Below are positions 33,001 through 45,000 of a stretch of 64,000 nucleotides of DNA, piece after piece. Source of the stretch: Candidatus Poribacteria bacterium (GTDB lineage Bacteria > Poribacteria > WGA-4E > PCPOR2b); contig OZ220744.1 in NCBI GenBank assembly GCA_965116925.1, positions 3,040,001 through 3,104,000 on the forward strand, in the 5' to 3' direction. A program made the position numbers. Every line of letters begins with the position of its first letter. Position 1 is the stretch's first letter.

Positions 33001-36000
33001 TTCTGATCTGCTGCCAGGGGCACCCCCTTTTCTGAAGCCTCTCTCGGCAGATTTACTGCTGTCATGGTAAGTGCTTTGGAATCTGGACGTGCTTTTGCGG
33101 ATAGTTGCGGTTGGGAAACAGGTCCAGTACCCTCCGAAGTCGGGGGCGAATCAATTTTCGACCCAATCGCTGTCCGTTGACCGGTTTCGAGTGAATCAAC
33201 CGTCAGCCAATTGGTCGTAGATGCGGGTTTTGGTTTAGGAGTGGGGGCTTCGGGAACAACCTTCGTTGGTTCGGGCGGTGGCGGCTCAACAGGCTCGGGT
33301 GGGACAACCACCGGGCGTCGGAAATGGGTGATGTCAACCTGAACAATATCATCAAAAGGCGGTAGTTGACGCTGCTCAATCTGTAAGTACATCATGATGA
33401 CTGCAACAATGAGGTGAATGATGAGCGAGCAGATTAAGGCTGGGCGAAAACTTCTGCGACGTAACATGGCGTCACCTACTTTTGTGAATTAAGGGATTTA
33501 GAAACCTCATAGGGATCCCTCATCTTCAGATGGATTTATCGGCTGACTTCGCGATCCGAATCCCAACGTTATGCACCATCTGTATCGGTTCATACGCTGC
33601 ACGGTTCGCACATCGTGCGGCGAATTGACCCCGTGGCACCCATGAACCGCCTCGAATGACCTTGCGCCTGCCTTCAGCTGGCCCAAAGGGATTTTCCGCC
33701 GGCGCGTATCGATAAGTCTCTGGGTGGAACCAGTCTATGCACCACTCGTAAACATTCCCGCCCATATCATAGCACCCATAAGGACTAACGCCTTCCGGAT
33801 AGCTGCCAACCGGCGTTGTTCGTTTGAGATGGCTTTCGGACGAATTCGTTTTGGCTGGATCCCATTCGTTTCCCCACGGATACTCTCGTCCATCGGTACC
33901 GCGCGCTGCTTTCTCCCATTCCGCTTCTGTTGGTAGGCGATAAGCATCGTCCCCCAATTCATTAAGATAACGCAGAAACTCCCGTGCGTCGTACCAACTG
34001 ACACCAACCACTGGACAATCCGGCGCATTGAAACGCGAATCGGTGTGAAAGCGCGGGGGATAATAGCCTGTGTCTTCCACGAATTGCGCATATTGGGCGT
34101 TAGTCACAGGGAACCTGCCAATATAGTAAGCGTTGAGTGTTACGCTACGCTGCGGTTCCTCATGGTCAGTTTTTCGTAGCCCTGTCGGAAGTGTCCCCAT
34201 GATGAATGGTCCTTCAGAGATATAGACCAATAGGTAGTTTAGCAAATCAATCGTAATCTCTTGCGGGGTTGACATGGGAATATACTCACTCGTAATAATC
34301 CACAGCGGTTGACAGATAAAGTGTAATGCACAGAACCTAAGGCTGTGCCGCAATTATGGTGAATTCTAAAAATAAATAGATACTTTCACCCCACCCCCCG
34401 GTAGGTGCGGTTTTCAACCGCACCGGTTTGGAGTGTCTCATTAATTCTAAAATCTACTATAAAAAAATTGTAACACCAAACAGCGGGGTGGGTCAAATGC
34501 TTTTCGAGGTTAATCACCTAAAAGCATAACTGTCACTTTTCTGCCTTGAGCCGCCGCCACAGAGTGGTACGGCTAATACCTAGACGTTTCGCAGCCAACT
34601 TCGGTTTACCATCACACTGTTCTAAAACCCGTTGAATTAATTCTCGCTCCAGTGCAGCGAGGGGGTTTTCGCCCATGAGTGCTAGCGTTACAATGTCGTT
34701 CTGAGGCATAATTAGCTCCGTGGGCAGATGTTTCTTTTCAATGCAATCACCCGGACACTTGACAAAAGCGTGTTCAATGATATTTTCTAACTGTCGCACA
34801 TTGCCGGGATACGGGTATTCCATTAGAATATCTAACGCTTCAGAAGAGACGTCCTGAATAAACTTCTGGGTGTGCCGATTGAATTTCTGGATAAAGTGCT
34901 CAATCAGAAGGGGAATATCATCCCGCCTTTCTCGCAGCGGCGGTAGCTGAATCGGCACGATGTTCAGCCGGTAGTAGAGATCTTCCCGGAAATCCCCTGA
35001 TTCAATTGCGGTTTTCAGATCACGATTGCTCGCAGCGATGATTCGCACGTCTACCTTTTGCGTATGAGATGACCCAACCTTCTCAAACGATCCCTCCTGC
35101 AAGACTCGCAGCAGCTTTACCTGCATGGCAGGACTTAGATCTCCGATTTCGTCCAGAAAAATTGTCCCCCTGTCCGCTATCTCAAACCGTCCCTGTCGGG
35201 TGGTTGTCGCGCCCGTATATGCTCCCTTTATATGCCCAAACAACTCACTTTCGAGGAGACTCTCTGCCAACGCTCCACAGTTGACACTCACGAACGCTTT
35301 GTCTGTCCTCTCACTTCGATGATGAATCGCCTGGGCGACTAACTCTTTGCCGGTGCCACTCTCACCCTGAATCAACACGGTTGTTGACATCGGTGCCACT
35401 TGCTGAATCAGTTCATAGATTTCCTGCATCTGTCGATTTTTACCGATGAGGTTTTCAAATGTGTAAAGACTTTTCAATTGTTCGTTGAGTGCTTTTACCT
35501 CTGAAAGATTATGGGCGAACCCTTGGATAAACCGCTCCCCGCCGTGCTCAATGCCAACCACCCGCAGCCCTAACGGTAGCATACCCCCATCTCTTTTCGA
35601 GAGCTCTGTTTCAAAGGTGACTGGCGTTCCTTGAGGGATAAGTTTCTCCAACAATTGAGATATCCGCTGAAATTCTTCGCTCCTCATCAGATTGTGCAAT
35701 GATAGGCTGGAGAGTTCCTGATGTGTGTACCCCAGCCACACACACAGATTTTCATTGACCGTCACAAACGGTTGGGAAAGAGAGGGACAGATGAAGATTG
35801 CGTCGTTGGACATCTCAAAAAGGGTGCGGTATCGCGCGTTGCTTTGTGCAAGATCGCTGACCCATCGTCCTTTCTCGATCAGGATCGAGAGTTGCCCGAC
35901 AATCTGTTTGAGAAACCCAACGTGTGCCTCCGAAAACGCTCGGGCAATTGCACTGGTAAAAAATACAACACCAATCGGCTTTCCGCTTACCTTCAGCGGT

Positions 36001-42000: not shown

Positions 42001-45000
42001 ATTGATAAACGGGACAGGGGTGCTGCGGAGCGCATTCTGCTCACCCTAAATGACCGCGGATACGACAAATCGGTCATAGCGGATTTCGTGTTCACCGCCG
42101 CCACTGACTTCTACTTCACCGGCGATGGTCACGCCCTCGACTTTGCGAACAAGATGTTTGAGGCACTAGATTACATTGAATGGGACGGGGCACACGAAAT
42201 CTTGCGTCCCATTGTTGTTGACTTGGTCAGCCGGACGCGCCATGAGGAGACATCTCGGTGGGCGGACAGTGTACCGGTGTTGGAGCCGATCTTCGATCGT
42301 CTAGATGAAATCTGGCAGGAGAACCAAGCCAACGAGGCAGAACTCGATATTTCCGAGTTCACCCAAACGATGCTTGGCGACGATTTTGTGCCGATTGTTG
42401 CAGAGATTGAGGTGAAGCTTCGCGCCGGCGTGAAGCCTACCGACATCTGTCGAGCCATGACCTACGCTTCAGCGATTCGGACCGCCCGTTTCCATCTCAA
42501 GAATGAGGGGGATTGGCACGATGTAGCAAACATCTACTCCTACGCACACGCGCTCTACTGCACGTTCCACTACGCACCAAGTGCAAACCTTTTGCGAGGA
42601 ATCTTCCACGGTGCCGTGTTCCTGAACTATCTACGCTGGTTGAACATGCCAGCGGCACGTATCCCTCGTCCCGGTCAACGGCTGGATGAAACCTTTGACT
42701 CCGTTGATGAGATGCTGGATCGCTTTCAGGAATTTGCCGACTTCCAGAAGGTCTACGAAGCAGAAATCCTTGTAAACCAATATCTGGAGGAAGGGCACGA
42801 CGTTGACGCGCTCAAGCGCGCATTGGCTCATATTTTACTCCGTGAAGATGCAGAACTTCACATGTTCCAAGTGCTCGAAGTCGCCTTTAGGCACTATGCA
42901 CTCACTGATGATATTGAGGAGAAGCGGATGCACCTCCTCGCCGCGACCCGCTACATCACCGCACAGAAGTTGATGAAGAATATCCTCTGGTCAACCGAGA
43001 ATGCAGAACGTCTAGCACGGGGCGAGTTGCTCAGTGAACGTGAGGATGATAATTAGCGAGCCAAACAAACAACCAAAAAAGGGCGCACCCGAACCGGTGC
43101 GCCCTTTTTTTTATCGCTCATGTTAAGATTTAGTGCAAAGAAACCGAGTTTTTTCTTCAAAACTCGGTTTCTCTTCGTACTTTGCACTTTCTTTTTATAT
43201 GAGCCCTTTTTATTGATTAGGACTTACGCAGTTGATATAAATACCGCCGCTGCCTTCGTGGCACGTCACCTGCTCTTGAAGAAATTGGGGGTTCCTAGTC
43301 TGTAATAGTGGGTACAGGTTGCCTAACCTGTACGGAGCATAATAGTAGGTACAGGTTGCCTAACCTGTACGGGGTGTGCGATGTTTGCCAGCGAAGTGCG
43401 TAACTCCTACTAACTATCGGTATATCATTTTTATCACAACGGTGTGGCACAGTTTCAACAATCTATTTGCGATCACGGGGTTCCCTCTGAAATCATAGGG
43501 CGTATCACAAACATCTGCAAGGTTATCCTGTCAAAGGGTTTAGCGAAACAATCAGTTGTGCCATAATCCCCTGTTTACGGTTCGAGATAACTGTGGCATG
43601 GGAATTGCTAACGGTCAATGCTCTAGGTAAATTTCGTGGCTTCATGTTAGGAAATCGTCCAACAGGAACCAAGTCTTTCCGAAAAAACTCGGTTCCTGTT
43701 AGTGTTAGGAGTTACACACTTCAGTTTGTAGTAGCGCAATTCATTGCGCGTTCTTCCCTCCCCATGCTTACGGGGGCGGGTGCCCTCAGGGCGCGGGAGG
43801 ACGGGTGATAAATCGCCGAACTACAAAGCTTTGACTGTTCAACTGCGTAAGTCCTAAGTGTGTATTTTGCACGTTCTTTTAAGATGAGCCAATTTCGTTT
43901 GTTGACATACTCCCCGCCCTAAAGGACGAGGATTCTTGTGATTCCCTGTCCGATAGTTTTGGGAATTGCGCTATCAACAAAGTGAGCCATCCGAAGATGG
44001 TCTTACAACTTCTTCTGCGAGGGTAGATGCCCCTACCCGGTAGATATTCATTGCAGCGTTGCGGTCTCTATCGTGTGTCGTGCCACAATCGTTACACCGC
44101 CATGTTCTATCACGGAGGTTCAACGCTTCATTAACAACACCGCAAACCGAGCAGGTTTTACTCGTTGGATACCACTTATCAATGAACACGATCTTGACGC
44201 CTTTTTTCTTAGCGATATACACCAACTTCTTGACGAAATCGGCAAAGCCGAGGTCGCTGACTTGGCGCCCCCAAAGGCTTTTCATACCTTTAAGGTTCAA
44301 ATCCTCAAGCCGTATCTCGTCGTATTCATCAGTGAGTTGGTGTGCAAGCTTCCAGTGGAAATCTGCGCGTTGCCGTTCAATCTTGCGGTGCTTCCGTGCT
44401 AAATTCAATCTTGCCCGTTCACGATTCTTTGACTGCTTCTTTGTTCGTGAATGCGCTCGGGTCGCACGTTTGATAGTATTGAGGCTGCGTTTGAAAAACT
44501 GGGGTGAGTCTATATCATGTCCGTTTGACCCAGTGAGATACCTGGTGAGACCGAAATCAAAGCCCGCGATTTTACCCGTCATAACCCGATTTAAGTACGG
44601 TTCCTCATAGTCCGTTAAAATACAGATATAGATGTCACCGAGAGTGTCCCGTTTAATCGTGCACCGTTTCGGGTTGCCATGCACATCACGGGATTTGAAA
44701 TACTGATAGATCCGTTTGCCTATCTGAATCTTGTTACCGGGCAGGAGTTTCCAACCCGCTTGTTTGAGTGTGAATGATTTATACTTGCGACGCGGTTTGA
44801 AACGGGGACGCCCCCACTTTTGACCGTTCGCACGGGCTTCAAACATCGCGTTATAGCCTTTGTCGATTCGTCCAACTACGTCCTGAATCGCTTGGCTAGG
44901 CAGCTGATTCCAATGGGCAAACTTCGATAGCCGTTTCAGCTTAGAGATATGACGCATCAATCTAAACTTATTGATATATTTGCCATAGATGGCGTGATAG

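Follow-up and report, generated by a model that had tools for sequence, protein, structure and literature searches.

What does a Rieske [2Fe-2S] domain do when it is fused to a large helical domain without a Pfam or NCBIfam family, and is the gene for this fusion controlled by the activator gene beside it? These questions are raised by a locus of Candidatus Poribacteria (assembly GCA_965116925.1), analysed here in a window of 64,000 nucleotides (contig OZ220744.1, positions 3,040,001 to 3,104,000). An earlier note had read the fusion proteins, designated RH1 and RH2 below, as self-sufficient Rieske-dependent metallo-oxygenases with a new enzyme fold, switched on by a redox-sensing regulator.

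Layout of the locus

Open reading frames were present at the coordinates of all three genes described before, with the Pfam domains claimed for them (Table 1). As reported, RH1 and the activator gene diverge, but this holds for RH1 only: RH2 lies downstream of RH1 on the same strand. The start of RH1 is probably the ATG at 37707, located 8 nt after GAGGAG and yielding a protein of 589 aa, which was preferred over the GTG; because of this start, the residue numbering of the earlier note is offset by 3. RH1 and RH2 share 38.6% identity, and RH2, with Asn at the position of H414 and His at that of N420, belongs to a branch that is deeply separated within the family. Four Rieske-helical paralogues were found in the genome (6.47 Mb), as stated previously; the remaining two, RH3 and RH4, form a tandem pair at contig position 1,820,683-1,824,222 (577-578 aa, 24-26% identity to RH1/RH2).

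Table 1. Features of the RH locus (window coordinates).
Feature	Position	Strand	Length	Basis or detail
Sigma-54 enhancer-binding protein gene	34533..36704	-	723 aa	ORF, Pfam/NCBIfam
Candidate activator binding sites (UAS)	36799-36812, 36817-36829, 36887-36899	+		Three inverted repeats, TTTCA-N3-4-TGAA(A/C)
Sigma-54 promoter-like site, directed toward RH1	36990..37004	+		TGGCAT-N5-TTGC
MITE-like insertion in RH1 leader	37012..37446	.	~435 nt	
RH1, Rieske [2Fe-2S] and helical BTG13-fold domain	37698..39476	+	592 aa from GTG	Rieske 37698-38030; helical BTG13-fold 38031-39473
Metzincin-like gene between RH1 and RH2	39829..40881	+		HExxH..., hydrophobic N-terminus; weak Pfam matches
RH2, Rieske and helical architecture as in RH1	41209..43056	+	615 aa	
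Intrinsic-terminator-like end of RH2 transcription unit	43076..43112	+		GC-rich hairpin then T run; sequence reading

The metzincin-like protein gave weak Pfam matches to Metallopep and Reprolysin-type families. Its gene has no counterpart in the closest relative, L007, in which RH1 and RH2 are separated by a gap of 340 nt with no gene between them, and it probably lies outside the system. The insertion in the RH1 leader, likewise missing from L007, consists of two short repeat families (units of ~116 nt and ~310 nt) with 59 matches in the same genome, at 95-100% for the 116-nt unit (91% for one partial copy) and 75-95% for the 310-nt unit. Sponge metatranscriptome contigs from three studies span RH2, RH1 and part of the activator gene, which is no proof of transcription.

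The helical domain and its candidate metal site

In both RH1 and RH2, Pfam detected only Rieske, Rieske_2 and Rieske_4 at the N-terminus (Rieske E 9.5e-17 and 1.3e-16) and none of the catalytic-domain families of Rieske oxygenases. The Rieske domain resembles the ferredoxins and Rieske domains of Rieske non-haem iron oxygenases, such as 5bok (E 6.5e-14), 2qpz (2.6e-13) and KshA (8.5e-8), and its cluster ligands C51, H53, C70 and H73 (C-x-H...C-x-x-H) were invariant in 12 of 12 aligned full-length members. The helical domain, of ~470 residues, was confirmed to be all-helical (23 helices) and to match no Pfam or NCBIfam family; modelled alone with AlphaFold, it reached a pLDDT of 96.5 and a pTM of 0.95. 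Docking of the Rieske and helical parts gave an ipSAE of 0.48 (best control 0.03), a value rated 'weak support', a mark that 116 of 157 solved complexes reach, against 2 of 215 mismatched pairs; contact agreement between runs was at least 93% and partner pLDDT at least 87. The prior for such docking is high because both halves belong to one chain.

The claim that the domain finds no solved relative fell once the helical part was compared alone. Among 48,161 chains searched with VIA-align, Z>=8 was obtained only for BTG13 (7y3w_A; Z 20.4, rmsd 4.6, 334 residues aligned) and PaD (8z4q_A; Z 18.1, rmsd 4.3, 327 aligned). In a second structure comparison, all six chains at Z>=8 were DUF4243/questin-oxidase entries (BTG13, AflY-like, PaD; Z 17.7-20.4), the best score outside this group being about Z 6.6-6.7. 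Weaker sub-domain matches, to an MgsA C-terminal fragment and clamp-loader domains, are common to the RH model and the model of a true DUF4243 member. Foldseek placed 8yxs_A at the top (probability 1.00) and returned nothing at E<=0.001. A true bacterial DUF4243 member is far closer to the solved chains (Z 32.3 against BTG13; second, Z 30.2), and at the sequence level true bacterial members barely match the solved fungal proteins (8yxs only, E 1.3e-3). PF14027 (cut-off 27 bits) had no match at E<=0.1 in RH1 or RH2 and none at E<=10 in the six frames of the whole genome, and an hhalign comparison of the RH helical family with 17 true DUF4243 members was not significant (E 0.1). The modelled structure thus points to a very distant, hitherto unrecognised relative of the DUF4243/BTG13 non-haem iron dioxygenases.

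RH proteins share with DUF4243 members (PF14027; BTG13, PaD, AflY-like, GedK, OzmD) an all-helical fold, of about 22 helices in BTG13 and PaD, over about 330 residues and a set of collinear motifs: a His opening the ligand-2 helix, an H-x-x-T motif where the long hairpin has its first helix, and H-x-x-(K/Q)-x-x-E-A opening the ligand-4 helix. They differ in being only 9-12% identical, about 100 residues longer and invisible to PF14027, in having Gln for the carboxy-lysine and Trp/Phe for the first His, and in that a Rieske domain always stands ahead of the helical domain, whereas described DUF4243 members have none. In the literature collection searched, no paper combined Rieske with DUF4243, BTG13, questin oxidase, GedK or OzmD.

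In published accounts, PaD has H63, H166, H317, H394, carboxy-K397 and water as ligands, and BTG13 a 4-His-1-Kcx site in which T299 holds the carboxylate (PMC11371914; PMC12173810). Residue equivalences between RH proteins and BTG13 were placed by motifs and helix register, not by superposition. Conservation was assessed in 50 sequences (31-75% identity; RH1 numbering from 37698). Of the residues previously called invariant, H278 (48/50), H525 (48/50), D281 (48/50), N404 (50/50), E405 (43/50) and D408 (49/50) held up, but H271 (His in 29/50), H401 (24/50) and H440 (His in 35/50, Asp in 11/50) did not. His occupies position 413/414 in 46 sequences, and T/S417 is found in 38. By motif and helix register, H278, the His at 413/414 and H525 would correspond to ligand positions 2, 3 and 4. 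The carboxy-lysine position, three residues after H525 (H-x-x-Q), is taken by Gln528, with Gln in 49/50, and the first His position by Trp (35/50) or Phe (9/50), 44/50 in all. The single local hhalign match falls on the His4/carboxy-lysine motif (EDAEFH-SF-Q-MLEA over GDEH-VI-K-FTEA), and H525-x-x-Q528 aligns with H330-x-x-K333 of true members by both hhalign and helix start. In two independent models the helix starts (413 vs 329) and the hairpin turn (317/321 vs 270/273) correspond, and therefore H303/T306 (domain numbering) would fall on H256/T259 of a true DUF4243 member. Judged from these alignments, three His of the BTG13 ligand positions look retained and two of the five positions changed.

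The activator and its regulatory cassette

The activator comprises a Rieske domain (residues 3-97, CPH...CPWH), GAF (134-277), PAS (291-403), a Sigma54_activat AAA+ domain (419-586; PF00158, E 3.7e-73), AAA_lid_14 and HTH_8 (682-721; E 4.5e-13), and its loop reads GAYTGA in translation (GAFTGA-type). The combination of Rieske and Sigma54_activat occurs in about 52 clusters, the named ones mostly from Poribacteria, and a full-length orthologue was found in 26 of 121 genomes of the phylum. Among the literature matches listed, none joins 'Rieske domain' to an enhancer-binding protein or sigma-54.

The link to the activator, previously drawn from position, could be extended. The candidate binding sites lie 103-191 nt upstream of the predicted sigma-54 promoter; palindromes of this kind have a background density of 0.09 per kb. 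In the window, the promoter pattern alone was not above chance (61 matches with <=2 mismatches, 57 expected), and the predicted promoter is supported because it is conserved beside the activator gene in relatives, not by the pattern match. In 22 of 24 related loci, a sigma-54 promoter with two to three upstream palindromes adjoins the gene for the activator. In L007 the promoter is identical and the palindromes are conserved, two with one base change each and the third unchanged, while the intervening DNA is variable. The genome also contains rpoN (two Sigma54_DBD matches above cut-off). Read from the DNA, this arrangement suggests that the regulatory link between the activator and RH1 is more than mere position.

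Of 24 evaluable loci, 11 have an RH gene as the divergent cargo of the activator, with activator identity as low as 54%; among the other 13, it was a gene for a 136-aa Glyoxalase/VOC protein in 5 of 5 scanned. The VOC gene under the same cassette in other genera suggests a detoxifying or oxidising enzyme as cargo. In systems of the NorR-norVW type, a sigma-54 activator with a metal-based sensor is encoded beside the redox enzyme gene under its control. The present locus resembles this type in its divergent activator gene, upstream sites and sigma-54 promoter (predicted here), and in having as cargo a redox metalloprotein with a fused electron-transfer domain; it differs in that the sensor opens with a Rieske domain and the cargo, RH or VOC, varies by genus.

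Proposed function and competing readings

RH1 and RH2 are tentatively regarded as Rieske-coupled non-haem-iron redox proteins, probably oxidases or oxygenases, with a BTG13-related helical domain; we put this reading at somewhat under even odds. Both would be soluble two-domain redox metalloproteins whose helical domain may bind a single iron; H278, H414 and H525 (RH1 numbering) would be its ligands, possibly joined by H/D440. The Rieske cluster would receive electrons from a donor and hand them to this site, which would activate O2 or another oxidant so that a small substrate, possibly hydroquinone/quinone-like or otherwise electrophilic, is oxidised. The activator may sense the redox state through its own Rieske cluster and then turn RH1 on. 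By our reading of PMC12173810, known BTG13-type members take electrons from hydroquinone substrates, without a redox partner.

Such a protein would be a Rieske-dependent oxidase/oxygenase with a catalytic domain unlike that of the classical enzymes, which is of the helix-grip (Bet v 1-like) type and carries a 2-His-1-carboxylate triad. RH proteins resemble the alpha subunits of Rieske non-haem iron oxygenases (naphthalene dioxygenase, KshA, carnitine monooxygenase CntA) in being soluble and in their order of domains, with the Rieske [2Fe-2S] domain at the N-terminus and, behind it, a domain that probably contains a mononuclear iron site, predicted in the RH case. In contrast to them, the C-terminal domain is all-helical with structural matches to DUF4243 only, and reductase or ferredoxin genes are not regularly adjacent in the loci examined. 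The fold shared with non-haem iron dioxygenases and the three His positions support the earlier metallo-oxygenase reading in direction, as far as the model goes; its catalytic part is weakened because the carboxy-lysine position holds Gln and the first His position Trp/Phe.

The family is large, as claimed before: searched with the helical domain alone, it comprises 1661 clusters at E<=1e-3, formed at 50% identity, of which 953 remain at E<=1e-10. At E<=1e-90, 116 of the phylum's 121 genomes contain a member, and at E<=1e-20 these have between 1 and 7 matches apiece; the RH2 type is the copy that nearly every genome of the phylum has. Besides Poribacteria, the family is widespread in Chloroflexota, Latescibacterota, Gemmatimonadota and haloarchaea. 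All 24 longer fused relatives found are signalling proteins, 22 with a Ser/Thr kinase and two with a sigma-70-type protein ahead of the Rieske and helical domains; P0007 (ECF sigma plus RH) and P0014 (RH plus adenylate/guanylate cyclase) add two more.

Since every multi-domain relative found is of a signalling nature, a sensor role is a serious rival, which we consider the less likely of the two. The Rieske-helical unit would then be mainly a detector: the cluster and a His-rich pocket would register redox state, O2, NO or a quinone-like ligand, and a conformational change would carry the signal, along the chain in the kinase, sigma-factor and cyclase fusions and through contacts with other proteins in stand-alone forms such as RH1/RH2. 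The absence of the BTG13 catalytic carboxy-lysine suits this role, as do P0377 and P0384, which have no hydrophobic segment between kinase and Rieske domain and retain the conserved residues, and the regulators in RH neighbourhoods: of 68 loci, six have a LuxR-type response regulator, four a GAF histidine kinase and four an ECF sigma factor. Neighbour content is variable, with the commonest family in 12 of 68 loci, yet most neighbours are oxidoreductases and hydrolases. In a quick tree the fusions had about three origins, nested among stand-alone forms, which fits a sensor; they are nevertheless a small minority of at least 1661 clusters and reflect only about three events. Furthermore, the activator that would govern RH1 as its cargo already has sensor domains, the VOC metalloenzyme under the same cassette suits an enzyme better than a sensor, and more than 30 polar positions are near-invariant between Bacteria and Archaea.

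It is improbable that the helical domain now lacks a metal and serves as a ligand-binding domain or scaffold (for a cofactor or anionic metabolite, for example), with the Rieske domain a plain electron carrier or structural relic. Two of five ligand positions are altered, RH3 and RH4 change further ones, many invariant residues are Arg, Asn, Glu, Asp or Trp, as in polar-ligand sites, and sequence methods detect no kinship to DUF4243. Against this, three His and the H/D position are still conserved at or near the ancestral site, H278 and H525 are replaced in RH3/RH4 by Asp/Glu, which are also metal ligands, and the Rieske ligands show no variation among the aligned full-length members. Taken literally, the first reading, a self-sufficient Rieske oxygenase with a never-seen enzyme fold, drew on the missing Pfam/NCBIfam family and the empty Foldseek result but is scarcely credible, given that the fold is already solved in BTG13 (7Y3W), PaD (8Z4Q) and 8YXS and that RH proteins contain no reductase module and so do not look self-sufficient; no reductase domain was seen among the fused forms found, nor a conserved reductase neighbour in the loci examined.

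Beyond the preferred reading as Rieske-coupled oxidases/oxygenases, RH proteins might, though we think it doubtful, represent a third kind of Rieske-dependent iron protein, in which electrons from the Rieske cluster enter a re-modelled 3-His(+Gln) iron site within a BTG13-fold domain. If so, one redox-reactive unit would act in two settings: alone, as an oxidase/oxygenase under sigma-54 control, and fused to Ser/Thr kinases, ECF sigma factors and cyclases, as their input domain. Its governing protein in Poribacteria would then be an enhancer-binding protein with a Rieske cluster as sensor, the first of its kind to be described.

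Gene content of the region and paralogous genes

Four genes are located within 34533-43056. One of them encodes a sigma-54 enhancer-binding protein with a Rieske-GAF-PAS sensor part (the activator), whose translation contains the Rieske ligands CPH...CPWH and the GAYTGA loop. Two others, RH1 and RH2, each encode a Rieske [2Fe-2S] domain followed by a helical domain of ~470 residues (RH architecture); Pfam and NCBIfam detected the N-terminal Rieske domain and no further family in either product. The observation of the earlier note, a Rieske domain joined to an unassigned helical domain with an activator alongside, is thus real and correct in outline, as judged from the open reading frames and the Pfam/NCBIfam scans. 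Residue numbers given here refer to RH1 counted from its GTG codon; an ATG codon at 37707, 8 nt past GAGGAG, is the likelier start. The metzincin-like gene separating RH1 and RH2 occurs in this genome only, and in L007, the closest Poribacteria relative locus, the RH genes lie 340 nt apart. The nearest public relatives were found in Candidatus Poribacteria MAGs (92% identity). Two tandem paralogues, RH3 and RH4, are encoded elsewhere in the 6.47-Mb single-contig genome (24-26% identity to RH1/RH2), where the neighbouring genes encode ATP sulfurylase, a PhyH dioxygenase and an SBP_bac_11-type ABC transporter.

An Rfam scan of 34000-44000 yielded no match near the gathering score. Just downstream of the RH2 terminator lies a TnpB/IS605 OrfB-type gene (Cas12f1-like TNB + OrfB_IS605; 43974-45110, minus strand), and 45352-47856 (plus strand) encodes an 834-aa protein with WD40 repeats almost throughout, followed by a VWA-domain protein. 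On the far side of the activator gene (31917-34353) lie a second VWA protein and a gene of the FGE-sulfatase family.

Features of the activator-RH region and of the paralogous genes (window positions unless stated otherwise)
Feature	Position	Strand	Remarks
Sigma-54 activator	34533-36704	-	723 aa; Pfam: Rieske 3-97, GAF 134-277, PAS 291-403, Sigma54_activat 419-586, AAA lid, HTH_8
Three inverted repeats TTTCA-N3-4-TGAA(A/C)	36799, 36817, 36887 (to 36899)		between activator gene and RH1
Sigma-54 promoter-like site TGGCATCAAATTTGC	36990		after the three repeats
Leader insertion	37012-37446		~435 nt, in RH1 leader; MITE-like; lacking in L007
RH1	37698-39476	+	592 aa counted from GTG
Metzincin-like gene	39829-40881	+	hydrophobic N-terminus, HExxH motif; between RH1 and RH2
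RH2	41209-43056	+	615 aa
Terminator	43076-43112		hairpin + T run, after RH2
RH3/RH4	1,820,683-1,824,222 (G000 contig position; L005:10683-14222)	-	tandem paralogues

Fold and putative metal site of the helical domain

The helical domain alone (residues 112-592) was used as query and gave 1661 relatives at E<=1e-3, of which 953 also passed E<=1e-10 (clusters at 50% identity). Most of them are 570-620 aa long with a match beginning near residue 110, so that the majority are Rieske-fused as well. The domain was modelled with a 50-sequence alignment (31-75% identity), resulting in 23 helices at very high confidence (pLDDT 96.5, pTM 0.95). For this model, no Foldseek match reached E<=0.001; the first one listed was the non-haem iron dioxygenase 8yxs_A (E 2.7e-3, probability 1.00, TM 0.36/0.39), with BTG13 and PaD, questin-oxidase (DUF4243, PF14027) dioxygenases, listed lower. 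VIA-align against 48,161 representative chains placed BTG13 (7y3w_A; Z 20.4, rmsd 4.6 A, 334 aligned residues, 11% identity) and PaD (8z4q_A; Z 18.1, rmsd 4.3, 327 aligned) at the top, as the only two chains with Z>=8, the next chain reaching 6.6. When the 995 best Foldseek chains were re-aligned, all six with Z>=8 (7y3w, 7y3y, 7y3x, 8yxs, 8z4q and 8z4r; Z 17.7-20.4) belonged to this DUF4243 family. For calibration, the true bacterial PF14027 protein P0151 (model pLDDT 87.2) scored 32.3 and 30.2 against 7y3w_A and 8z4q_A, respectively, at 12-14% identity. As judged from the models, the RH helical domain has the BTG13/PaD fold, at a distance clearly greater than that of ordinary members of the family. 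The claim of a new fold is therefore wrong, and the claim that there is no solved relative is not borne out; the latter arose because the whole protein had been searched and its Rieske domain accounted for the listed matches. Recognition of the BTG13/DUF4243 dioxygenases dates only from 2022-2025 and comes mostly from natural-product pathways of fungi.

Sequence methods did not recover this relationship. PF14027 gave no match to RH1/RH2 at E<=0.1, none in six frames of the whole genome at E<=10 and none in 5 RH-bearing genomes; true DUF4243 members were obtained from 151 Actinomycetota-side genomes, two of which were positive. Profile-profile comparison (hhalign) of the helical domain with 17 actinobacterial DUF4243 proteins yielded a single local match (E 0.1), and forced global and low-threshold runs gave no trustworthy full-length alignment. 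Since the true members themselves barely match the solved fungal sequences (8yxs only, E 1.3e-3), the superfamily is very divergent, and failure of sequence methods is weak evidence against common descent.

According to the respective papers, PaD binds iron through H63, H166, H317, H394, carboxylated K397 and water (PMC11371914), whereas BTG13 has a 4-His-1-Kcx377 site, whose carboxylate is held by T299 and H58, and the carboxy-lysine is argued to be irreplaceable (review; PMC12173810). The counterparts in true bacterial members are H37 (NHGPM), H131 (THG), H256-x-x-T259 and H330-x-x-K333. The sole hhalign match places H525-x-x-Q528-x-x-E531-A of RH1 on H330-x-x-K333-x-x-E336-A, and the helix with the fourth-His motif begins at the matching residue in two independent models (413 vs 329, counting the helical domain alone). 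Both models also contain a long helical hairpin (turns at 317/321 vs 270/273); with the turns aligned, H414/T417 (H303/T306 of the domain) fall exactly on H256/T259, and H278 lies at the start of the helix corresponding to the THG helix. Of the 50 sequences, 48 retain H278, 46 have a His at 413/414, 38 have T/S417, 48 have H525 and 49 have Q528. At the place of the first His (GWGPG vs NHGPM), Trp is found in 35/50 and Phe in 9/50 sequences, and position 440 in the second hairpin helix is His in 35/50 and Asp in 11/50. In RH2, residue 414 is Asn and residue 420 is His; RH3/RH4 have Asp at the 278 position and Asp/Glu at the 525 position, in an alignment that is uncertain at 25% identity. From these motifs and the helix order, we infer a re-modelled site that would comprise three His residues, perhaps together with H/D440, and lack the carboxy-lysine. 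Because this defining residue is absent, RH is regarded as a distant structural relative rather than as a BTG13-type enzyme.

Docking of the Rieske half with the helical half, each entered as a chain of its own and with a 2Fe-2S cluster plus Fe present, gave an ipSAE of 0.48 (runs: 0.54, 0.48, 0.37; best control: 0.03) for two halves that belong to one polypeptide. The tool verdict was "weak support", a mark reached by 116/157 solved complexes and 2/215 mismatched pairs; the runs agreed in >=93% of contacts, with partner pLDDT >=87.

Separately, locus L134 contains a 319-aa ORF (1512-2471, plus strand) between its activator and RH genes, with DUF4243-ligand-like motifs including H-R-I-K near the C-terminus. 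It gave no Pfam match and a non-significant hhalign E of 0.05, and no second copy was found in the loci compared.

Activator, upstream sites and exchangeable cargo

In L007, the promoter and the third inverted repeat are identical to those in the window, and repeats one and two differ by 1 base each; the intervening DNA is variable. Matches to the sigma-54 consensus alone show no enrichment across the window (61 vs 57 expected), so that the promoter call rests on conservation. Owing to the 435-nt insertion, the promoter lies ~700 nt from the start codon here, compared with ~225 nt in L007. Two repeat families, with 59 matches in the genome, make up the insertion: one unit is ~116 nt long, with many copies at 95-100%, and the other is ~310 nt long, with copies at 75-95%. 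A motif of ~35 nt (GAGTGyCTCATTAAyTCTAA..TCyACTATAAAAA) is present just upstream of RH1 (37636-37680) and downstream of the activator gene (34432-34466); comparison with L007 shows no conservation, and it may be another short repeat.

The Rieske-activator architecture comprises ~52 clusters, and those with a named source are mostly from Poribacteria; a full-length orthologue was found in 26/121 genomes of the phylum, and rpoN is present in the genome studied here. An RH gene is the divergent neighbour of the activator in 11/24 evaluable loci (five RH1-type, five RH2-type, and an eleventh from another class whose activator is 54% identical). In the remaining 13 loci (L121-L133, from another genus), a like promoter (TGGCACGAAACTTGC) precedes a 136-aa gene, whose product was a Glyoxalase/VOC-superfamily protein in 5/5 loci scanned. 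In L132 and L133, an M24 peptidase/creatinase-like ORF (Pfam scan: L133 only) is located between promoter and VOC gene. No orthologue of the VOC cargo was found with this query in the genome studied here. Regardless of cargo, the promoter and 1-3 palindromes occur in 22/24 loci, the palindromes at ~-90/-103 and at various places farther upstream (~-128 to -324), against a background of 0.09 per kb. With promoter and palindromes conserved in L007 and in these loci, the proposed regulatory link between the activator and RH1 is well supported by comparison. We conclude from the sequences that a conserved cassette of activator, upstream sites and sigma-54 promoter would drive RH in this genus.

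That a small metalloenzyme gene stands in for RH as cargo elsewhere speaks for RH being an enzyme within a related stress/detoxification theme. The VOC superfamily includes hydroquinone dioxygenases and glyoxalases. Prompted by these activities and by the hydroquinones that serve BTG13, GedK and PaD as substrates (PMC12173810, PMC11371914), we infer that the signal may be redox or quinone/electrophile stress.

Signalling fusions, distribution and significance

A sensor role for the Rieske-helical module is a serious rival. All 24 helical-domain matches of 843-2405 aa are signalling fusions, 22 of them of the type Ser/Thr kinase + Rieske + helical domain (858-956 aa) and two of the type sigma-70 + Rieske + helical domain. 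Nine odd-length representatives were scanned, among which P0007 combines an ECF sigma factor with RH and P0014 combines RH with an adenylate/guanylate cyclase; four others showed a Rieske domain only and three no family. The kinase fusions retain the conserved residues and have no hydrophobic segment ahead of the Rieske domain. In a quick maximum-likelihood tree, the kinase forms group tightly in a single clade, with the cyclase form and two stand-alone proteins next to it, and the sigma forms make up a separate clade, indicating ~3 fusion events, all nested among stand-alone forms. One of the two sigma-70-type proteins, P0398 (897 aa), carries a sigma-70 region 1.2/2 segment apparently inside the helical domain and is probably an assembly or gene-call chimera, not a true architecture.

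No reductase fusion was seen among the fused forms, and a census of 68 loci in other phyla, many of them from related MAGs and with crude ORF calling in GC-rich genomes, revealed no fixed operon and no recurrent reductase. Neighbouring genes encode luciferase-like monooxygenase (12), aldo-keto reductase (11), 2-hydroxyacid dehydrogenase (10), NHL (10), SDR (10), PhyH (9; also beside RH3/RH4), alpha/beta hydrolase (8), HpaB (5), MR/MLE (5) and LigB (4), as well as the regulators LuxR-type response regulator (6), ECF sigma (4) and GAF kinase (4). The metallo-oxygenase reading of the earlier note is partly supported: fold and three apparently retained His positions favour it, whereas the lost carboxy-lysine and the signalling fusions speak against it. 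Enzyme and sensor readings may both hold, with one redox-reactive unit serving either way.

Within the phylum, the RH family was detected in 117/121 genomes at E<=1e-20 (best match E<=1e-90 in 116/121), with 1-7 matches each. It extends to Chloroflexota, Latescibacterota, Gemmatimonadota, Acidobacteriota, Rubrobacteraceae and haloarchaea; the Protein Atlas returned unnamed clusters only. In sponge metatranscriptome contigs (libraries of three studies), RH2 is fully covered (41138-43062, 95 differences), RH1 is represented by 37456-39611 at ~91% identity and by fragments, and pieces of the activator gene are present at 97-99%. These contigs would fit expression in situ without proving it, since libraries of this kind may also contain DNA; gaps in the cover do not indicate silence. 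The MITE-like leader repeats are very abundant in the RNA-library contigs (word depth up to ~800). Many joints in these contigs between 34462, 37009-37433 and 43115-43205 were attributed to short shared repeat ends, not deletions, because repeats of >=40 nt, whether direct or inverted, are lacking within 34300-43400.

In the literature searched (outside subscription journals), Rieske together with DUF4243, BTG13, questin oxidase, GedK or OzmD was not found, and 'Rieske domain' with enhancer-binding protein or sigma-54 was absent among the 12 listed of 69 matching papers; one paper combined Rieske, ECF and C-terminal extension and, to judge from title and abstract, has no bearing on this family.

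We rate RH as a re-modelled branch of the BTG13 fold that Pfam does not detect, fused to a Rieske domain and placed under a sigma-54 activator which itself bears one. The finding would carry the BTG13/DUF4243 fold over to a family of very large size in Bacteria and Archaea (>=1661 clusters at 50% identity), whose metal site differs and which brings its own electron-transfer domain, and oxidation chemistry dependent on Rieske clusters would thereby gain a new architecture. Thousands of proteins whose present label is merely 'Rieske (2Fe-2S) protein' obtain a name and residues to test, and possible redox sensors emerge in the Rieske-based sigma-54 activator and in the kinases and sigma factors that contain a Rieske domain. 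The function concerned is a core one in sponge symbionts and is probably expressed.
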